Position numbers and translations under genes: made by a program
Assembly: GCA_021780615.1 (NCBI GenBank)
Contig: JAJXYJ010000022.1
Coordinates: 809-64,808, forward strand
Source: a bacterium
GTDB taxonomy: Bacteria > Patescibacteriota > Minisyncoccia > UBA6257 > JAGOQP01
Direction of reading: 5' to 3'
Length of the DNA: 64,000 nt
The notes under the pieces: generated by a model
What the model was told of the DNA's origin: nothing
The model's database searches: none
Seen by the model: the letters and a program-made list of their open reading frames with translations, nothing else
In this document: positions 9,929 to 15,659 of the stretch, in pieces
Layout: each line of letters opens with the position of its first letter
Numbering within the stretch: the first letter of the stretch is position 1

Positions 9929-10177
9929 TTACCAATTTTTTGTTTTTTCTTTTGCTTCCGATTTTACCTTTTGGTATGCATCAGTCGCCTTTTGATCAAC
10001 TTCCGGAGAAAGCAGGCGCAAAAGCTCATGCCCCAAAATACGATATTGTCCGCCTATCTTATTGGCACGAATAAGCCCCCGTTTTAACAGGCGCTTTATC
10101 GTGCTTTCACTTATTTTAAGTATTTTGCGGGTCTCTTCGGTGGTGTATACCGCCGTTGGTTTTATCTCCTCCTGCAT
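9929..10177 (-). CDS. Helix-turn-helix DNA-binding protein, excisionase/MerR-like family
   Basis: YTTEETRKILKISESTIKRLLKRGLIRANKIGGQYRI is a classic excisionase-family HTH. Length is 82 aa. Confidence 0.55.
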   Translation of the reverse strand: MQEEIKPTAVYTTEETRKILKISESTIKRLLKRGLIRANKIGGQYRILGHELLRLLSPEVDQKATDAYQKVKSEAKEKTKNW

Positions 10178-10344: not shown

Positions 10345-12594
10345 TTATTGGAAGTTTATCGTCTTCCACGTTCCTGCTTTGATAAAAGCCTCTATCTGAT
10401 CAATTCCCGCCGCCTTATCAGGCCGGACTTTACGCAGGCCCTCCGCGGCATCCATGGAGTGCACCGCATCGTGTTTATCGTAATAGTAACGCAACAGGAA
10501 ATAATATGCCTGCGCCATAGTGTTATCATTAAGATATGCTCCATTATTTAACGACAAAGCAGTATCCAACTCACTCAAACCTTGTGTGTAGTTTTGTTCC
10601 CCCGAAGTTACCAGAATAAGACCATAGTAGTAATGTGCCGCATATACTTTCGGATCAAATGAAATAGTTTCCTGCATTAACGACAGCGCCGCAGGAATTT
10701 GATTATCCAATGCTAAATCATATGCCAATAGATATCGCGTATCTTGCCGCTTGGGCGATAATGCCATTGCTTTGCGGTATGCATCCTCCGCATTTTTATA
10801 ATATTGCGGAAATCCTCCTTTTTGTGCCAATGCCTCGTACCCTTGTCCCAGGGTAATATAGTAGCGCGGATTCCATGGTTCTCGCGCAACCAAATCAGCC
10901 ATCTCCGCAATGCCCACCTGCATCGCCGGCAACCACTGATTTTGCGGCATCGTACCGGATTGCCCCGTAAGCGTGCTCAAAAAGTGCATGCGAGTAAGTT
11001 CCTGAATGTAGTTATACGGGGTAAACACTCCCGCCCCTTTCGTGTTTGTAATACTTTGCACACCCCCAGGGGATTGAATGGTGTTTAAATAATCTCTCAT
11101 TTGTGCAAACGGCACCCACGTCCAAGCAATTAATGCAACAGCAAAGAATATGGCGAGTGCGCCAATAACAGCATCGTAGACGATATACAATTTTGAATTT
11201 CGATTTACGAATTTTGAATCACTAACAACATTCTGCACCTCTTCTTTTATTTTTGAAATTCGAAATTCAAAATTCGAAATTGATTCAATACTTGAGCAAT
11301 AAATAAGGTATGCCAAAAATGCAAAGAATACCGGGTACGTGACAATAGAATCAAACACCGTCAGATTTTGTACAAAATACGATACGCCAAAAAAGAGGAG
11401 CGCAGCCATAGCCACCGAAAACCCTTTACGCTTGAATATCAACCACACAAATGATCCCCATATGCCCAAATATGCCGCCAACCCCACAACGCCATTCATC
11501 ACCAACACATCCATAAGTTTATCATGGGCTCGATCAAACCAGAGCTGTTCGTATTCAAAATATTTTGGATTGTAGTATGCGTTATACGCCACCGAAAAGT
11601 TTTCTGGGCCCCAGCCGATGAGAAATTCTTTCATACTGTTCTCACTTGGGTTTATGGCATGCAAGCTGACACCCAATGAAATAAGGCGGGTTTCAGTGCT
11701 GGGGTCATGGAACGTGAATGCCGCAATGCGATTAAAGCCCGGAATTTTTTGCCAAAATGTATCATGCTTGGTCGCATAAAATGCCCCTCCCAACACCACC
11801 GCAACTGCAATAGCCCACAAAGAAACTTTCTGCAATGTTGTTTTGCCGATGGAAATACTCTTTCCTTTGATGGCCATATACGCAAGCACTGCCGCAAGCC
11901 CCACAGCCGCGCCAACAATCACCCCGCGCGTTTCACTGATGAATATACCATACACCGATACCGGCACCATGACTGCGGCAAAAATTTTCCAAAACGATCG
12001 CCACCCGTGTGATACAATAACAGAATCTTCTTTTTTAGTATCAAGAAATACTAATACCCCCGCAAGAATGGTAAAAAGAAAAAACTCACCAAGATATATG
12101 GGATTACCGGTCGTTGAAGATGGGCGCACAACGCCGTTTGCAAATTGAATGAACGCGTCCAAAAACATGTATGCTCCAACACCCAACGAAATTTGAAAGA
12201 ATCGCATCCACTCCTTACGCTCAAAAAGCAATGCCGTAAGCACAAAGAACCCAAAGAAAAAGAGCATGTTTAACAGCCCCTCGGCGCGCTCCACGTCGCC
12301 AAAGAATGCACGGTACACGTCTTGGGCAAATATCGTGCTGATGATAAGCAGTCCCATAAATACGGTAGTAAAGAGTCCTACAGGGTTTTTGAGTACGCGC
12401 TTCAATTTGTCGTGCATCTCTTGGCGAAATTTTTTGGCATAAAAAAGGTAGCTGGCGAATAGAATCCAGGCCACCCCCACCGCCACGCGAATGAGAATAT
12501 TTTTGCCGCTGATGTAGGGAAAGAAAAGCGAATCAATGACGATGAGCGGGGATACCGCCAACGCGTAGAGAATATATTTGATAGTGGAACGCAT
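10345..12594 (-). CDS. O-antigen ligase/polymerase-like polytopic membrane protein with C-terminal TPR repeats
   Basis: The N-terminal ~450 aa has multiple TM helices in a Wzy/O-antigen-ligase-like arrangement. The C-terminal region has TPR-like repeats (AYRKAMALSP..., AAHYYYGLIL..., AQAYYFLLRYYYDK). Confidence 0.6.
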   Translation of the reverse strand: MRSTIKYILYALAVSPLIVIDSLFFPYISGKNILIRVAVGVAWILFASYLFYAKKFRQEMHDKLKRVLKNPVGLFTTVFMGLLIISTIFAQDVYRAFFGDVERAEGLLNMLFFFGFFVLTALLFERKEWMRFFQISLGVGAYMFLDAFIQFANGVVRPSSTTGNPIYLGEFFLFTILAGVLVFLDTKKEDSVIVSHGWRSFWKIFAAVMVPVSVYGIFISETRGVIVGAAVGLAAVLAYMAIKGKSISIGKTTLQKVSLWAIAVAVVLGGAFYATKHDTFWQKIPGFNRIAAFTFHDPSTETRLISLGVSLHAINPSENSMKEFLIGWGPENFSVAYNAYYNPKYFEYEQLWFDRAHDKLMDVLVMNGVVGLAAYLGIWGSFVWLIFKRKGFSVAMAALLFFGVSYFVQNLTVFDSIVTYPVFFAFLAYLIYCSSIESISNFEFRISKIKEEVQNVVSDSKFVNRNSKLYIVYDAVIGALAIFFAVALIAWTWVPFAQMRDYLNTIQSPGGVQSITNTKGAGVFTPYNYIQELTRMHFLSTLTGQSGTMPQNQWLPAMQVGIAEMADLVAREPWNPRYYITLGQGYEALAQKGGFPQYYKNAEDAYRKAMALSPKRQDTRYLLAYDLALDNQIPAALSLMQETISFDPKVYAAHYYYGLILVTSGEQNYTQGLSELDTALSLNNGAYLNDNTMAQAYYFLLRYYYDKHDAVHSMDAAEGLRKVRPDKAAGIDQIEAFIKAGTWKTINFQ

Positions 12595-12756
12595 AATATA
12601 AAGGTATTAAGGAATAAGTAGTATGTATTAAGGAAGAGAAGTAAAATATTCTTCCACCTTTTATATGTACTTATTTCTCATATTAATAAACGATATCAAA
12701 TACTATCAAAGAATGTAAAAAAATACCACTTAAGCCTGTATCAGGCGCCCCCTCTG

Positions 12757-12970
12757 TTATGCTGAGCGACGCATTCCTTTCTGTCATGCTGATCCGCCCA
12801 GGGCGGAGAAGCATCTCCTCCCTATCATAAGACCCCTGCCTGCCGGCAGGCATCTATACTGCCTCATCATGAGATTCTTCACTCCACTTCGTTTCGTTCA
12901 GAATGACAGAAAAAAGAATGACATTCATCATGTCATGCTGAGCCTGTCGAAGCATCTCCTCCCGATAAAT
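12757..12970. repeat. Cluster of short REP/MITE-like repeat units (core gtcatgctgaKC...gaagcatctc) plus 78-bp direct repeat copy 1 (12831-12908)
   Basis: Units of the form gtYatgctga[gt]c...gaagcatctc recur around 12757, 12786, 12941, 13476 and 13626. The 78-bp sequence gacccctgcctgccggcaggcatctatactgcctcatcatgagattcttcactccacttcgtttcgttcagaatgaca recurs at 13360-13437 with one mismatch. Confidence 0.7.
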
Positions 12971-13238
12971 CCTCAAAATGAGGATTTTGTTTTTGTATGA
13001 GAATAATTTTTTTATCCCTTTTCCATCCTTTTATTTTCTTTTCAGCGGCAATAGCTTCTTGCGGAGAAGAAAATATTTCATACCACACCAATTTATGCAC
13101 ATTGTATTTTGCCGTAAATCCTGGAACAAGTTTCTGAGTATGCTCATAGAGCCTGCGTTGAAGGTTGTTTGTTACTCCCGTGTATAAGACGGAGTTATAC
13201 TTGTTGGTAAGTATATACACAAAGTATTCTTTGCGCAT
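12933..13238 (-). CDS. GIY-YIG nuclease family protein (small, UPF0213-like)
   Basis: MRKEYFVYILTNKYNSVLYTGVTNNLQRRLYEHTQ contains the GIY-YIG motif. The C-terminal ...KGWKRDKKIILIQKQNPHFEDL is typical of the family. I chose the third in-frame Met as start. The 3' end is encoded by the repeat units. Confidence 0.65.
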   Translation of the reverse strand: MRKEYFVYILTNKYNSVLYTGVTNNLQRRLYEHTQKLVPGFTAKYNVHKLVWYEIFSSPQEAIAAEKKIKGWKRDKKIILIQKQNPHFEDLSGGDASTGSA

Positions 13239-13295
13239 AGAAATATTCATTTTAGTGTAGCAAAGACTTTGCAAAATACATAGAGAGATTATTGC

Positions 13296-13660
13296 ATGAG
13301 ACCCTTCGCTTCACTCAGGGTGACAGAAAAAAAGATGACAAATCTTTTCGTTATACCGAGACCCCTGCCTGCTGGCAGGCATCTATACTGCCTCATCATG
13401 AGATTCTTCACTCCACTTCGTTTCGTTCAGAATGACAACCCTTTCTGTTATGCTGATCCGCCATTACCACATCGTCATGCTGATCCGCCCAAGGCGGAGA
13501 AGCGTCTCATTCCCCATAACATTAATTCTCGGCATTCATAACTCACCCTAACCCTCTCTTAGCTTAAGAGAGGGGGTCTTTGATGTACGAAATTCCTGGG
13601 ATTTCGTACATCATAACGCTTCCCCGTCATGCTGAGCGGAGCGAAGCATCTCATTCTCCC
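13296..13660. repeat. Second block of the same REP/MITE-like repeats, 78-bp direct repeat copy 2 (13360-13437), and perfect hairpins at 13561-13585 and 13595-13619
   Basis: Near-identical 78-mer. Units gtcatgctgatccgcccaaggcggagaagcgtctc and gtcatgctgagcggagcgaagcatctc. Inverted repeats ccctctctt-agc-ttaag-agagggggt and tgtacgaaat-tcctggg-atttcgtaca. Confidence 0.7.
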
Positions 13661-13669
13661 ATTCATAAA

Positions 13670-13700
13670 CTAAAAACCCCCATAAAGGGGGTTTTTAGTT
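13670..13700 (-). terminator. Rho-independent terminator (bidirectional hairpin) downstream of the surface-protein gene
   Basis: aaaaaccccc-ataaa-gggggttttt is a perfect 10-bp stem flanked by A/T runs, 40 nt after the stop at 13740. Confidence 0.65.
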
Positions 13701-13739
13701 TTACAACACTCCAAAGAGCGTCGTTTCTATTCAACTTAC

Positions 13740-15659
13740 TTATTGAACAGAGACGTACGGGGTCTTGAAGATGTTGCTCATGTAGGAAGAATTCGAGAGA
13801 CCAGTAGATGATGCACTCGTGTTCCACGCTACACCGCTCATGTACATGTAGGTGCTACCCACATTCGCAGCCGTTCCGGGATGCAATGCAGTTGCATTTA
13901 CAGTAAATGTGGCAGTTGAACCCTTCGGGATATCATAGAATCCAGAGACCTGATTGTAACCAGTCGGATCTTGATATGAGACCGAAGAAGAAGCTACTGC
14001 GGCAGTTGTTGCGCCACCCAAGCTAATCTGGAATGCATTAAGGGTCGATGATGCGAGATAGATATCTGCACCATTTGCCGTCACGTTAAACGTGAAGGTT
14101 CCCGTCATGGTTCCTGTTGCACCTGCATACGTTCCCGCAGTGTAGGTTGCATTCGCGCTTGTCAAAGCAAACGTCGGAGCAACTTTCATGACATAGAACG
14201 TGTCAGATGTGCCGGATCCTGAAAGGCTAGAACCGGTGTATGTGGTGCCATCAGACTTGTAGGCAACCAAACCAGGGGTGTTGACTGTTACAACAGTGCT
14301 GCTTGCATTGTTGCCAGCATTTGAGAAATCACCTTTTACCGTGATGACTTTCGTGCTGTTAGCAGGCACCTGGAAGCCATTCATCATGTTGGTGAATGTT
14401 GCATATCCAGTTGAAGCATTGACGCTCGCTGACTGCAACAAGTTGCTGCCATCGTACAAGTACGCGACAGTCGGTGTTGCGGTGCCGGCGAAGTTTACTA
14501 CAGCCTGGTCAACTTTCGCTACATCATTGTCAGTCTTCAAATCGAAGGCGAACAACGGTGCTGCGCTTACATTACCCTGCGTGTCTGAAACAATCGCGCT
14601 TGAAAGCGGAGAGTTCGGGTCGCGGGATACTGAAAGGGTTGCGGTTGTTGACAAGCTCTTCTTTGCGTTAAACGTAGTGTTCCACGTTGCAAGCGGTCCA
14701 TACTGCTGGATGCCTGCGCCATCGGTTCCGCGAACTGCGTTCACAGGAACAGTGATGACCCATCCACCTGTAGGATAGCTTGTTCCACCCACAGCGTATG
14801 CAGAGTCGATAGTGGAGTACAACGCTGCCTTGACGTACAAGACATGGTACTGTCCATCAGCCGGAACCACATAGTTCAAGCCAGTGAGATACACATAGTA
14901 GTTGGATCCCTGCTTGGTGACAGTGCTGCTGTTCAAAGGAACAGTTGCCAATGTCGCGCCGCTGTCAGAAACAACGGAGAGGGATGACAAAATCTTTGTG
15001 TAGGTCAAGATATCATTCGAAGAACCATTACCAAGCTGAAGCTGAATGCGGTCAATGGTGATCGGTGAGTTCTGTGCCTGAAATTCGAATCCTGCGACAT
15101 TGTCGGCAGTGTCTCCTTCATAGAGATTCTGGCCGTTTGCCGGAGTCGGATTCTGCATGACGGTCAAGATACCTTCAACACCGGTGCTGGGCATCGGGGT
15201 TGGGGTTGATGAACCGGTCGGAGTCGTTGACGGGGTCGGAGTCGGGTTTACCGCAACCATTGAGTTGAGGTTCGCGCGAGTGATCGGGCCAAAGAAACCT
15301 GATGCCGGCGAAATGCCGACGGAAGCCTGATACTTCGCCAAAGCTGCTTTAGTCATAGGACCAAAGTAACCTGTCGGAGCAACTGACAAAAATCCTTTGC
15401 CATTAAGGAATGACTGCAATGCGGTCACTTCTGCACCCTTAGAACCAACAGTGAGATTGCTGGAGTAAGTGTATGAAGATGAACCGGTTGTTGAGCCACC
15501 CTGTGAGGACAATTGTGATTGCAAGGTCTGGATCTGGGCCAAGAGGGCTGCGATCTGGGCCTGCAAGTCTGCGGTGGTCTGAGCTTTCGATACTGAAACG
15601 AAAGTGACAGCCATTGCGAGAACTAACACAACTGACGCAATTTTTACGAAATTTTTCAT
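13740..15659 (-). CDS. Secreted Ser/Thr/Gly-rich cell-surface protein with a peptidoglycan-binding domain (PG_binding_1-like)
   Basis: Signal peptide MKNFVKIASVVLVLAMAVTFVSVSKA. Coiled-coil Q/L-rich stretch. SKGAEVTALQSFLNGKGFLSVAPTGYFGPMTKAALAKYQASVGI matches the PG-binding domain 1 pattern. A long T/S/G/A-rich beta-rich region follows. Confidence 0.6.
   Translation of the reverse strand: MKNFVKIASVVLVLAMAVTFVSVSKAQTTADLQAQIAALLAQIQTLQSQLSSQGGSTTGSSSYTYSSNLTVGSKGAEVTALQSFLNGKGFLSVAPTGYFGPMTKAALAKYQASVGISPASGFFGPITRANLNSMVAVNPTPTPSTTPTGSSTPTPMPSTGVEGILTVMQNPTPANGQNLYEGDTADNVAGFEFQAQNSPITIDRIQLQLGNGSSNDILTYTKILSSLSVVSDSGATLATVPLNSSTVTKQGSNYYVYLTGLNYVVPADGQYHVLYVKAALYSTIDSAYAVGGTSYPTGGWVITVPVNAVRGTDGAGIQQYGPLATWNTTFNAKKSLSTTATLSVSRDPNSPLSSAIVSDTQGNVSAAPLFAFDLKTDNDVAKVDQAVVNFAGTATPTVAYLYDGSNLLQSASVNASTGYATFTNMMNGFQVPANSTKVITVKGDFSNAGNNASSTVVTVNTPGLVAYKSDGTTYTGSSLSGSGTSDTFYVMKVAPTFALTSANATYTAGTYAGATGTMTGTFTFNVTANGADIYLASSTLNAFQISLGGATTAAVASSSVSYQDPTGYNQVSGFYDIPKGSTATFTVNATALHPGTAANVGSTYMYMSGVAWNTSASSTGLSNSSYMSNIFKTPYVSVQ

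Follow-up and report, generated by a model that had tools for sequence, protein, structure and literature searches.

What is the relation between a gene for a 101-residue GIY-YIG nuclease and the field of short repeats, about 1 kb long, in which it is embedded? The question is raised by a 64-kb stretch of bacterial DNA (Patescibacteriota; GenBank assembly GCA_021780615.1, contig JAJXYJ010000022.1), referred to here as the window, whose positions serve as coordinates throughout. An initial annotation had recorded two near-identical 78-bp direct repeats on either side of the gene and proposed a small selfish or mobile cassette in a field resembling repetitive extragenic palindromes (REPs) or MITEs (miniature transposable elements with inverted repeats), or else a recombination hot-spot acting on a neighboring polysaccharide locus. 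We found that the minimal GIY-YIG gene lies between inverted, self-folding hairpin units, that pairs of such units without a gene are dispersed around related genes, and that the copy number of pairs changes in one related system. On balance, we lean toward reading the locus as one member of a widespread, compact nuclease-plus-repeat family that resembles REPs and their REP-associated tyrosine transposase (RAYT) but is built on an Slx1-like GIY-YIG nuclease. That the nuclease acts on the units, and that the system is mobile, we infer.

The core of the locus is a compact cassette with the following parts, where bit scores come from R1, a covariance model of the hairpin unit built on 45 units from other genomes:

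12931–13325, minus strand: core cassette of 395 bp, consisting of a TGTCA-unit, a short leader, the GIY-YIG open reading frame (ORF), and an inverted unit ending in TGACA; the layout recurs in homologous loci.
13296–13326, minus strand: upstream hairpin unit TGTCACCCTGAGTGAAGCGAAGGGTCTC, oriented as the gene and 59 nt 5' of its ATG (R1, 43.5 bits, E = 5e-9).
12933–13238, minus strand: GIY-YIG nuclease gene (PF01541), 101 amino acids from ATG (MRKEYF); an alternative ATG at 13250 gives 105 amino acids.
12930–12960, plus strand: downstream hairpin unit, inverted relative to the gene (R1, 31.9 bits) and overlapping its last eight codons and TGA stop.

The same architecture recurs across phyla. 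We compared 80 loci (1.21 Mb in total) encoding homologues (53–69% identity), from Patescibacteria, Chloroflexota, Cyanobacteriota, Bacteroidota, Acidobacteriota, Firmicutes, Nitrospirota, Planctomycetota, proteobacteria, and others; counts near genes rest on 79 genes, with shuffled sequence as the control. A unit lies within 150 bp of the gene in 74 of 79 cases, compared to 6 of 79 after shuffling. By a perfect-stem criterion, a gene-oriented upstream unit and an inverted downstream unit are both present at 38 of the 79 genes and at none after shuffling. Within 60 bp, upstream units share the orientation of the gene in 25 cases and oppose it in nine, while downstream units oppose it in 23 and share it in eight. 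A strict pattern retrieves 291 units from the whole set (15 from shuffled sequence), 204 of which are no more than 700 bp from the gene. Variant unit classes (ATTGC-GA... and ATTCC/ATCCC-GA...) share this layout, near-identical non-coding units are present in unrelated phyla, and where a genome has paralogous cassettes, their likeness begins and ends at the units (L005/L015, 352 bp, 74% identity; two copies in L032, 405 bp, 85%). Judged from sequence, the gene and its flanking units are a discrete module of ~0.35–0.4 kb. The enzyme also tracks the class of its units: the nearest protein neighbor shares the unit class in 87% of cases, compared to 49% in permuted data (permutation maximum 67%), a pattern that would fit joint movement of the gene and its ends, enzyme–unit specificity, or both. 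In several loci of the candidate phyla radiation (CPR; L008/L083, L010, L051, L054), a TATAAT box directly follows the upstream unit and precedes the ATG by 6–12 nt, so the promoter may overlap with the unit and the mRNA may have almost no leader.

Because homologous loci end in inverted units, and none in long direct repeats, we place the real boundaries of the element at the inverted hairpin units, not at the 78-mers. Both 78-bp copies are present as first described, one on either side of the gene and with a single differing position; shuffles of the window contained no match, and ungapped similarity around the copies reaches 96 nt at 91% identity (12813–12908 and 13342–13437). Each nonetheless breaks down into the spacer and one unit of a gene-less pair, as the other features of the field make clear:

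12755–12774, plus strand: truncated unit TGTTATGCTGAGCGACGCAT, flanking a full unit on its outer side (repeat family D4).
12781–12909, both strands: gene-less inverted pair, with a long-stem unit at 12781–12819 (plus) and a unit at 12869–12909 (minus; R1, 28.3 and 36.0 bits) and a 49-nt spacer containing the palindrome CCTGCCGGCAGG.
12831–12908, plus strand: first copy of the 78-bp direct repeat, i.e., the palindromic spacer and the minus-strand unit of the gene-less pair.
12917–12924, plus strand: duplicated unit end GAATGACA after an A-run, just outside the unit at 12869–12909 (repeat family D3).
13334–13340, plus strand: duplicated unit end GATGACA after an A-run, just outside the unit at 13296–13326 (repeat family D3).
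13360–13437, plus strand: second copy of the 78-bp direct repeat, i.e., the same spacer and the unit at 13398–13438 (minus; 36.1 bits), with one mismatch.
13446–13462, plus strand: 5' half-unit TGTTATGCTGATCCGCC, duplicated just outside the unit at 13472–13510 (repeat family D4).
13472–13510, plus strand: long-stem unit, 90% identical to 12783–12822 (R1, 17.2 bits, E = 0.03; repeat family D2).
13624–13654, plus strand: solo unit with the apex GCGGAGC, a mini-hairpin DNA motif (R1, 44.1 bits).

Besides the cassette (12931–13325), the ~1-kb field contains a single intact gene-less pair, a fragment of a pair, and two solo units. The recurring units recognized at the outset (GTCATGCTGA...GAAGCATCTC and variants), 27–41 nt long, correspond to seven significant covariance-model copies, all inside 12781–13654, and nothing else in the 64 kb scores E < 1. 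Three units are on the minus strand (12869–12909, 13296–13326, and 13398–13438), two of them inside the 78-mers; the second 78-mer lacks a partner unit, whose expected place is occupied by the cassette. The two stretches of family D3 (12887–12923 and 13304–13340) are 81% identical. Tandem duplication would fit as the course of events, and so would unequal exchange between pairs or repair-associated copying.

The 78-mers might still be taken for the ends or insertion footprint of a mobile cassette, or for a hot-spot that mobilizes or varies the polysaccharide cluster. They are near-identical, they flank the gene, and, at 529 bp apart, they could recombine; moreover, the field does sit at the edge of the polysaccharide locus, next to a Wzy_C-type gene that heads a glycosyltransferase/flippase cluster. 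We nevertheless consider this explanation very improbable. Apart from the conservation of inverted units and the make-up of the 78-mers as pair fragments, no flanking direct repeat beyond chance was found at 113 isolated elements elsewhere, so the family does not leave direct repeats as a footprint of insertion. The 78-mer core has zero exact matches in a scan of Joint Genome Institute (JGI) metagenome contigs, and recombination between the copies would delete the nuclease gene, not move glycan genes. Nothing indicates that the field mobilizes or varies the cluster: the separate assemblies recovered for this uncultured, Patescibacteria-like organism (GCA_027355965.1; an assembly in the European Nucleotide Archive) are identical over 12300–14000, and neither an empty site nor a target duplication nor a polymorphism was found for the locus among recovered assemblies and database relatives. 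The nearest database homologue of the flanking Wzy_C protein is 47% identical, so the databases hold no close relative of the locus. The proposal of a small selfish or mobile cassette in a REP/MITE-like field loses its 78-mer boundaries but otherwise largely holds up, fitting the recurrence of the module, the paralogues alike from unit to unit, and the gene-less pairs that vary in a related system.

What, then, are the units? Each has the form 5'-TGTCA-(5-bp stem)-GA-(inner stem-loop)-GA-(stem')-TCTC, spans ~27–45 nt, and folds on itself. Among 129 distinct units aligned by the model, 99.4% of cells are paired and, at six of seven base pairs, both sides have changed (131 cells), a covariation score unmatched by any shuffle or slid register. 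This alignment was fitted to the model and so is biased toward pairing; the stem variants were also seen in a search demanding only flanking GTC...C. Since units around one gene often differ in the outer stem (e.g., ACCCT and ATGCT in the window), what is conserved is the self-pairing of each unit and not pairing from end to end. In nearest-neighbor DNA folding, the long-stem unit of the window beats its shuffles (−10.1 kcal/mol, z = −3.3) and short units score z~0; as folding of the short units is not significant, the case for the hairpin rests on covariation.

The unit probably acts as DNA rather than RNA, given that it occurs in both orientations relative to the gene, that G.U pairs are nearly absent (5 of 903 cells), and that many apices are of the mini-hairpin DNA type. 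The apex is GCGNAGC or GCGNNAGC in 69 of the 129 units, and its tetraloops break the RNA GNRA rule; many units, three of the window among them, have longer Watson–Crick inner stems instead. The mini-hairpins d(GCGNAGC)/d(GCGNNAGC) melt at 76.5 °C as DNA compared to 39 °C as RNA, a stability missed by standard thermodynamic models, and they serve as single-stranded initiation sites recognized by primases and N4 RNA polymerase (PMC13037366, a 2026 review). The near-zero scores of the short units in the folding above agree with this shortfall of the models. About half of the best-scoring units have exactly this motif at the apex; being a motif of structure, the mini-hairpin is no genetic element in itself. 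Only one strand forms the G.A/G.A internal loop and the G...A closure of the loop, and that strand is presumably the functional one.

Familiar structured elements did not account for the units. None of the seven was called as an intrinsic terminator, and no T-runs follow them; the sites called were 12967–12987, 13552–13574, and 13677–13690. Rfam 15 matched a single tRNA in the window, found no intron family there, and returned nothing better than E = 0.1 over 12550–13800, all far below gathering. Weak Rfam matches resembling C/D-box snoRNAs are attributable to chance, and a hammerhead reading of CUGA...GAA misfits the core, with none called by Rfam. Other hairpin families in the comparison loci have GTCAT...ATGAC ends and fully Watson–Crick cores, e.g., GTCATGCTGAACTTGTTTCAGCATC and GTCATTCCCGCGAAAGCGGGAATC (L010, 12545–12597; L015, 7383–7465; L023, 8190–8352 and 17197–17275; L074, 3309–3379; L025, 7248–7271), and the shared ends suggest a broader unit superfamily.

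The second component is the nuclease. Its match to PF01541 (70.5 bits, cut-off 22.6, E = 1.5e-19) comes with all the catalytic residues expected of a GIY-YIG enzyme, Y8, Y19, G21, R29, H33, and E66 being invariant among 70 homologues, so an active enzyme is predicted. An AlphaFold2 (AF2) model (pLDDT 84.9) has the three-stranded sheet between helices that defines the fold (strands 5–11, 18–23, and 49–56; helices 26–34, 59–70, and 74–84). Foldseek returned exclusively GIY-YIG domains, in the order 1zg2 (UPF0213 protein BH0048), Slx1 entries, and the UvrC N-terminal domain, and phmmer likewise placed 1zg2 first (E = 8e-5), followed by 1ywl (EF2693) and SLX1. Sequence and model together point to a catalytic-domain-only protein of Slx1/UPF0213 type, closer to these than to UvrC or homing endonucleases. 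E. coli YhbQ is another bacterial UPF0213 protein. The minimal GIY-YIG domain is shared with these closest matches, but identity is just 20–30%, and Slx1 differs in its RING domain and its dependence on Slx4. At least 90% of the homologues of this standalone, minimal protein conserve N85, which might correspond to the C-terminal Asn that is typical of the UvrC+ lineage and lacking in the Slx1-type lineage (PMC1564403). The family is large, with 12,072 clusters at 50% identity (E ≤ 1e-3), or 4019 at E ≤ 1e-10. Plasmids seldom carry the gene (32 of 72,556 records), 50,697 phage records contained no tblastn match to it, and PADLOC gave no match for membership in a defense system.

The protein ends 10–15 residues past the catalytic domain, and residues 95–101, which are encoded by the repeat unit, are disordered in the AF2 model. 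As had been noticed initially, the C-terminal GDASTGSA and the stop codon lie in the downstream unit (12932–12958). This is not peculiar to the window: 21 of 120 homologues have an ORF that runs on into the downstream unit, ends in ...D[SPA]S..S[E/G], and uses the TGA of the unit. The accompanying remark that the repeats generate spurious ORFs was right and of general reach, with one correction to its example, i.e., ORF 13296–13541 begins with MRPFASL and carries MRFFTPLRFVQND internally, whereas ORF 12869–13000 starts with it.

Units also exist in quantity without the gene. In the comparison set, adjacent units with no gene between them are most often convergent, as in the pair of the window, and form 90 forward–reverse pairs (median gap 22 nt), 54 reverse–forward pairs, 56 forward–forward pairs (tandem arrays), and eight reverse–reverse pairs, and a gene lies between the units of 32 forward–reverse pairs (median gap 316 nt). 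Given the same forward–reverse geometry and a gap of 22 in place of 316 nt, the gene-less pair amounts to the cassette minus its ORF. Solo copies, half-copies, and tandem arrays occur near the gene and elsewhere; the arrays include L072, 2690–3342 (period 68 bp), L058, 9223–9864 (39/152/191 bp), and L057, 9320–9900 (78 bp). A CRISPR-like nature was considered for those of L072 and L058 and rejected, as their spacers are repeated too and they are plain tandem repeats. Isolated elements have consistent ends, with T preceding GTCA in 82% and A following TGAC in 78% of the 113 examined. The exact unit consensus GTCATTCTGAGCGNAGCGAAGAATC was found in 92 putative viral stretches from IMG/VR (L095–L174), mostly as solo units or pairs, often 10–30 nt from a gene start and in either orientation.

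The clearest sign of activity comes from Planktothrix. In plasmid p1 of Planktothrix agardhii (L094, NZ_LR882964.1), a cassette lies in a very similar repeat field between two DISARM genes, one for an MmeI-type methyltransferase and the other drmA. Unit pairs are found in frame inside this methyltransferase gene (...VILSETKDLSGVVKDNRDSSQAQND...; 15454–15532 and 17092–17254 of L094), where they add VILSETKDL...RDSSQAQND peptides to the protein. Orthologues in other strains of Planktothrix vary at both sites in how many pairs and half-units they contain, and those from Laspinema, a Microcoleaceae genome, and Anabaena contain no units. Half-units consisting of the outer arm are repeated one to three times outside full units, often after an A/T run, both in the window and in L094 (18544–18590, 19170–19230, and 19320–19390 of the latter); they may be the footprint of hairpin cutting and repair.

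These gene-less pairs bring in the main rival explanation, in which the units are independent intergenic repeats kept by the host or another enzyme, and the GIY-YIG ORF is a free-standing, homing-type gene that cuts empty pairs, with break repair then copying it into the spacer. The ORF would always stand between an upstream and an inverted downstream unit because it had been copied into the spacer of a cut pair, and several observations agree: gene-less pairs have exactly the geometry of a cassette minus its ORF, units abound away from any gene, the ORF borrows the downstream TGA in the 21 homologues as if squeezed into an existing structure, and the absence of target duplication suits repair-mediated copying. 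On the other hand, the 101-residue protein has no C-terminal DNA-binding module of the kind that gives homing endonucleases long targets, and its tail is disordered. At the level of protein families, the match to TIGR01453 (group I intron endonucleases) is sub-threshold, at 21.1 bits against a cut-off of 56.05, and matches to homing-endonuclease families of PHROG are only weak. Homology arms would be just ~27–45 nt, the tracking of unit class by enzyme clade across phyla also fits an enzyme that services the units, and dispersal of the pairs themselves is left unexplained. We regard homing as unlikely, although the remaining explanations, including the direct-repeat one above, fit the data less well still.

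A quieter possibility is a vertically inherited repair or structure-resolving nuclease, with the hairpins as its regulatory or insulating elements (operator, promoter-proximal structure, or transcript-end hairpin) and the field as a product of local duplication. Standalone bacterial GIY-YIG proteins have been classed with Slx1 as predicted repair enzymes, in a 2006 phylogenomic survey that does not mention repeats (PMC1564403). Stability points the same way, since the homologue P0095 occupies the same site in all 24 contigs of one lineage and the locus is also stable in the window organism, and the TATAAT box after the upstream unit would suit a regulatory role. This account is improbable in our judgment, for it explains neither the dispersed gene-less pairs, nor the in-frame pairs of another gene with their strain-to-strain changes in copy number, nor the near-identical non-coding units in unrelated phyla; moreover, the units lack terminator calls, T-runs, and Rfam matches, and G.U pairs are scarce.

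How might a REP/RAYT-like system work with a GIY-YIG nuclease? Slx1 makes its cuts in branched and flap DNA and not at a particular sequence, a type of cutting that would suit a hairpin or cruciform substrate. In the mechanism we envisage, the nuclease would recognize the extruded unit as single-stranded or cruciform DNA, the likely substrate being the strand with tandem G.A mismatches and a GCGNAGC-type mini-hairpin apex, and would nick at or near the conserved TGTCA/TCTC flanks. Host repair, template switching, or gene conversion could then copy units, pairs, and occasionally the whole cassette, making no target duplication. The pairs lacking a gene would then count as non-autonomous derivatives that the nuclease serves in trans, parallel to REP doublets forming hairpins (REPINs) and their RAYT but with another enzyme, and half-unit duplications outside units would be repair footprints of cutting.

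The comparison with REP/REPIN-RAYT systems holds in several respects. In both, hairpin repeats are short and come chiefly in inverted pairs, inverted repeats also bracket a nuclease gene of low copy number (in the window, units 13296–13326, minus, and 12930–12960, plus), target duplication is absent, the gene is stably placed while the repeats vary, and the type of enzyme tracks the type of repeat. The differences are equally plain: RAYT is an HUH/Y1 (IS200-like) transposase, whereas the only gene of the present cassette encodes a GIY-YIG hydrolase of 95–101 amino acids; each present unit self-folds and the stems of a pair often differ, so that the pair is not one long hairpin; and the unit sequence is conserved across many phyla. 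As to dispersal, pairs are scattered in the flanks of related loci, whereas the units of the 64-kb window cluster at the gene. Further repeat families with unknown enzymes were anticipated in the REPIN paper (PMC3116915).

Other known systems share single traits with the module. GIY-YIG homing endonucleases (I-TevI type and free-standing phage Seg-type) have the same catalytic fold and residues, are small selfish-looking intergenic genes, and spread via host repair after cleavage, as would apply here; the present gene differs in having no intron or phage context and no C-terminal DNA-binding module, and its protein appears to belong to the Slx1-like lineage, not to that of UvrC and homing endonucleases (PMC1564403). 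Bacterial MITEs and in-frame palindromic elements (Rickettsia palindromic elements, Correia elements) likewise form gene-less inverted pairs of 60–130 bp, insert peptides in frame, and produce spurious ORFs. A classical MITE or DDE transposon was rejected: inverted ends are present, but target-site duplication is missing at the 113 elements, there is no DDE transposase parent, and only the GIY-YIG gene is associated. IS200/IS605 elements are small, have hairpin ends recognized as single-stranded DNA, and make no target duplication, but use an HUH transposase, carry their two hairpins on the same strand and not inverted, and are about twice the present size or more. Cyanobacterial small dispersed repeats, reportedly described by Elhai et al. 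in 2008, resemble the present units in the manner of the MITEs and could be the same units.

A limited full-text literature search found no description of the association between nuclease and unit, and for the UPF0213 structures, as in the 2006 survey (PMC1564403), no association with repeats is described; we consider that of nuclease and unit, with moderate confidence, undescribed so far. A 2024 study reported 30 GIY-YIG ORFs in non-intron insertions of CPR rRNA genes, judged to be outside classical homing (PMC11270868); the loci fetched here contain no rRNA genes and thus offer no link to those insertions. Horizontal transfer of a GIY-YIG gene from Patescibacteria was inferred in a 2025 study (PMC12455944).

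Several points weigh against the REP/RAYT-like reading. GIY-YIG enzymes are hydrolytic, and we know of no strand-transfer activity among them; as a hydrolytic nuclease cannot itself join DNA, spread would, conjecturally, have to rely on host repair. Neither insertion or excision of a gene-carrying cassette nor cleavage was observed. Within-genome paralogous cassettes are old, as their 74–85% identity indicates, P0095 keeps its site in every contig, and the assemblies of the window organism do not differ around the gene. The copy-number change in Planktothrix could come from slippage or unequal recombination alone, and the tracking of unit class by enzyme could equally come from simple co-inheritance. 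Four of the five unit types in the window fold no better than shuffles by nearest-neighbor DNA calculations. No GIY-YIG gene of the family was found within several kb of 94 exact units on the IMG/VR contigs; because these units and the phage records lack the gene, local linkage of nuclease and unit is not obligatory, and another agent could move the units. Lastly, units are confined to one locus within the window. The initial annotation would have abandoned mobility had the repeats been unique to this locus and invariant, and the outcome is mixed: the units are far from unique in nature, while this locus is their only site in the window and showed no variation.

Should the nuclease service the units as the REP/RAYT-like reading has it, it would be a candidate enzyme for very common small hairpin repeats of unexplained origin and spread, and a structure-specific single-stranded-DNA nuclease with a defined hairpin substrate. 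It would also represent a second, independent invention of the REP/RAYT lifestyle with another nuclease fold, in a module among the smallest self-contained nuclease–repeat modules known. A bolder version, which we put forward tentatively and with some doubt, is that the cassettes are an unrecognized class of minimal autonomous mobile element (~0.4 kb), in which a 95-amino acid Slx1-like nuclease, as the sole function of the element, cuts mini-hairpin termini and propagates both itself and a larger population of gene-less pairs. If true, this would be the first GIY-YIG-driven repeat/transposon system in prokaryotes, and it would show where a large, cross-phylum class of unexplained hairpin repeats comes from, along with the spurious peptides that they encode (VILSEAKDL, DSSLRSE, AQNDK, and similar). 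Whatever the mechanism, many of the spurious ORFs met in annotation, and artificial extensions at C- or N-termini, are explained by the units, as are in-frame peptide insertions in real genes.

A few further observations concern the surroundings. Opposite the Wzy_C side, the field adjoins a gene for a peptidoglycan-binding (PG_binding_1) protein. A small HTH_17 (excisionase/MerR-like) gene (9929–10177 of the window, minus strand), taken from the gene calls of L081, separates the Wzy_C gene from that for the Polysacc_synt flippase in the glycan cluster. The three perfect hairpins recorded at first are indeed there, at 12967–12987, 13552–13574, and 13667–13701. The first is a 9-bp hairpin on the plus strand (AAATCCTCA AAA TGAGGATTT) followed by a T-rich run; it is antisense to, and inside, the codons of the conserved NPHFEDL motif of the nuclease, and may be there by chance. 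The other two, along with a hairpin at 13581–13613, fall in the interval from the last units to the PG_binding_1 gene's 3' end; that at 13667–13701 has a 15-bp perfect stem with T-runs on both sides and resembles a bidirectional terminator. Outside the window, apparent population differences around P0095 resolve into a gap in a scaffold and a single intergenic indel of 74 bp, uncertain in kind. The indel, between the LemA and PolX genes (4863–4936 of L083 compared to 4371–4373 of L086), separates Daviesbacteria-like population variants, and its extra segment weakly resembles a degenerate unit.

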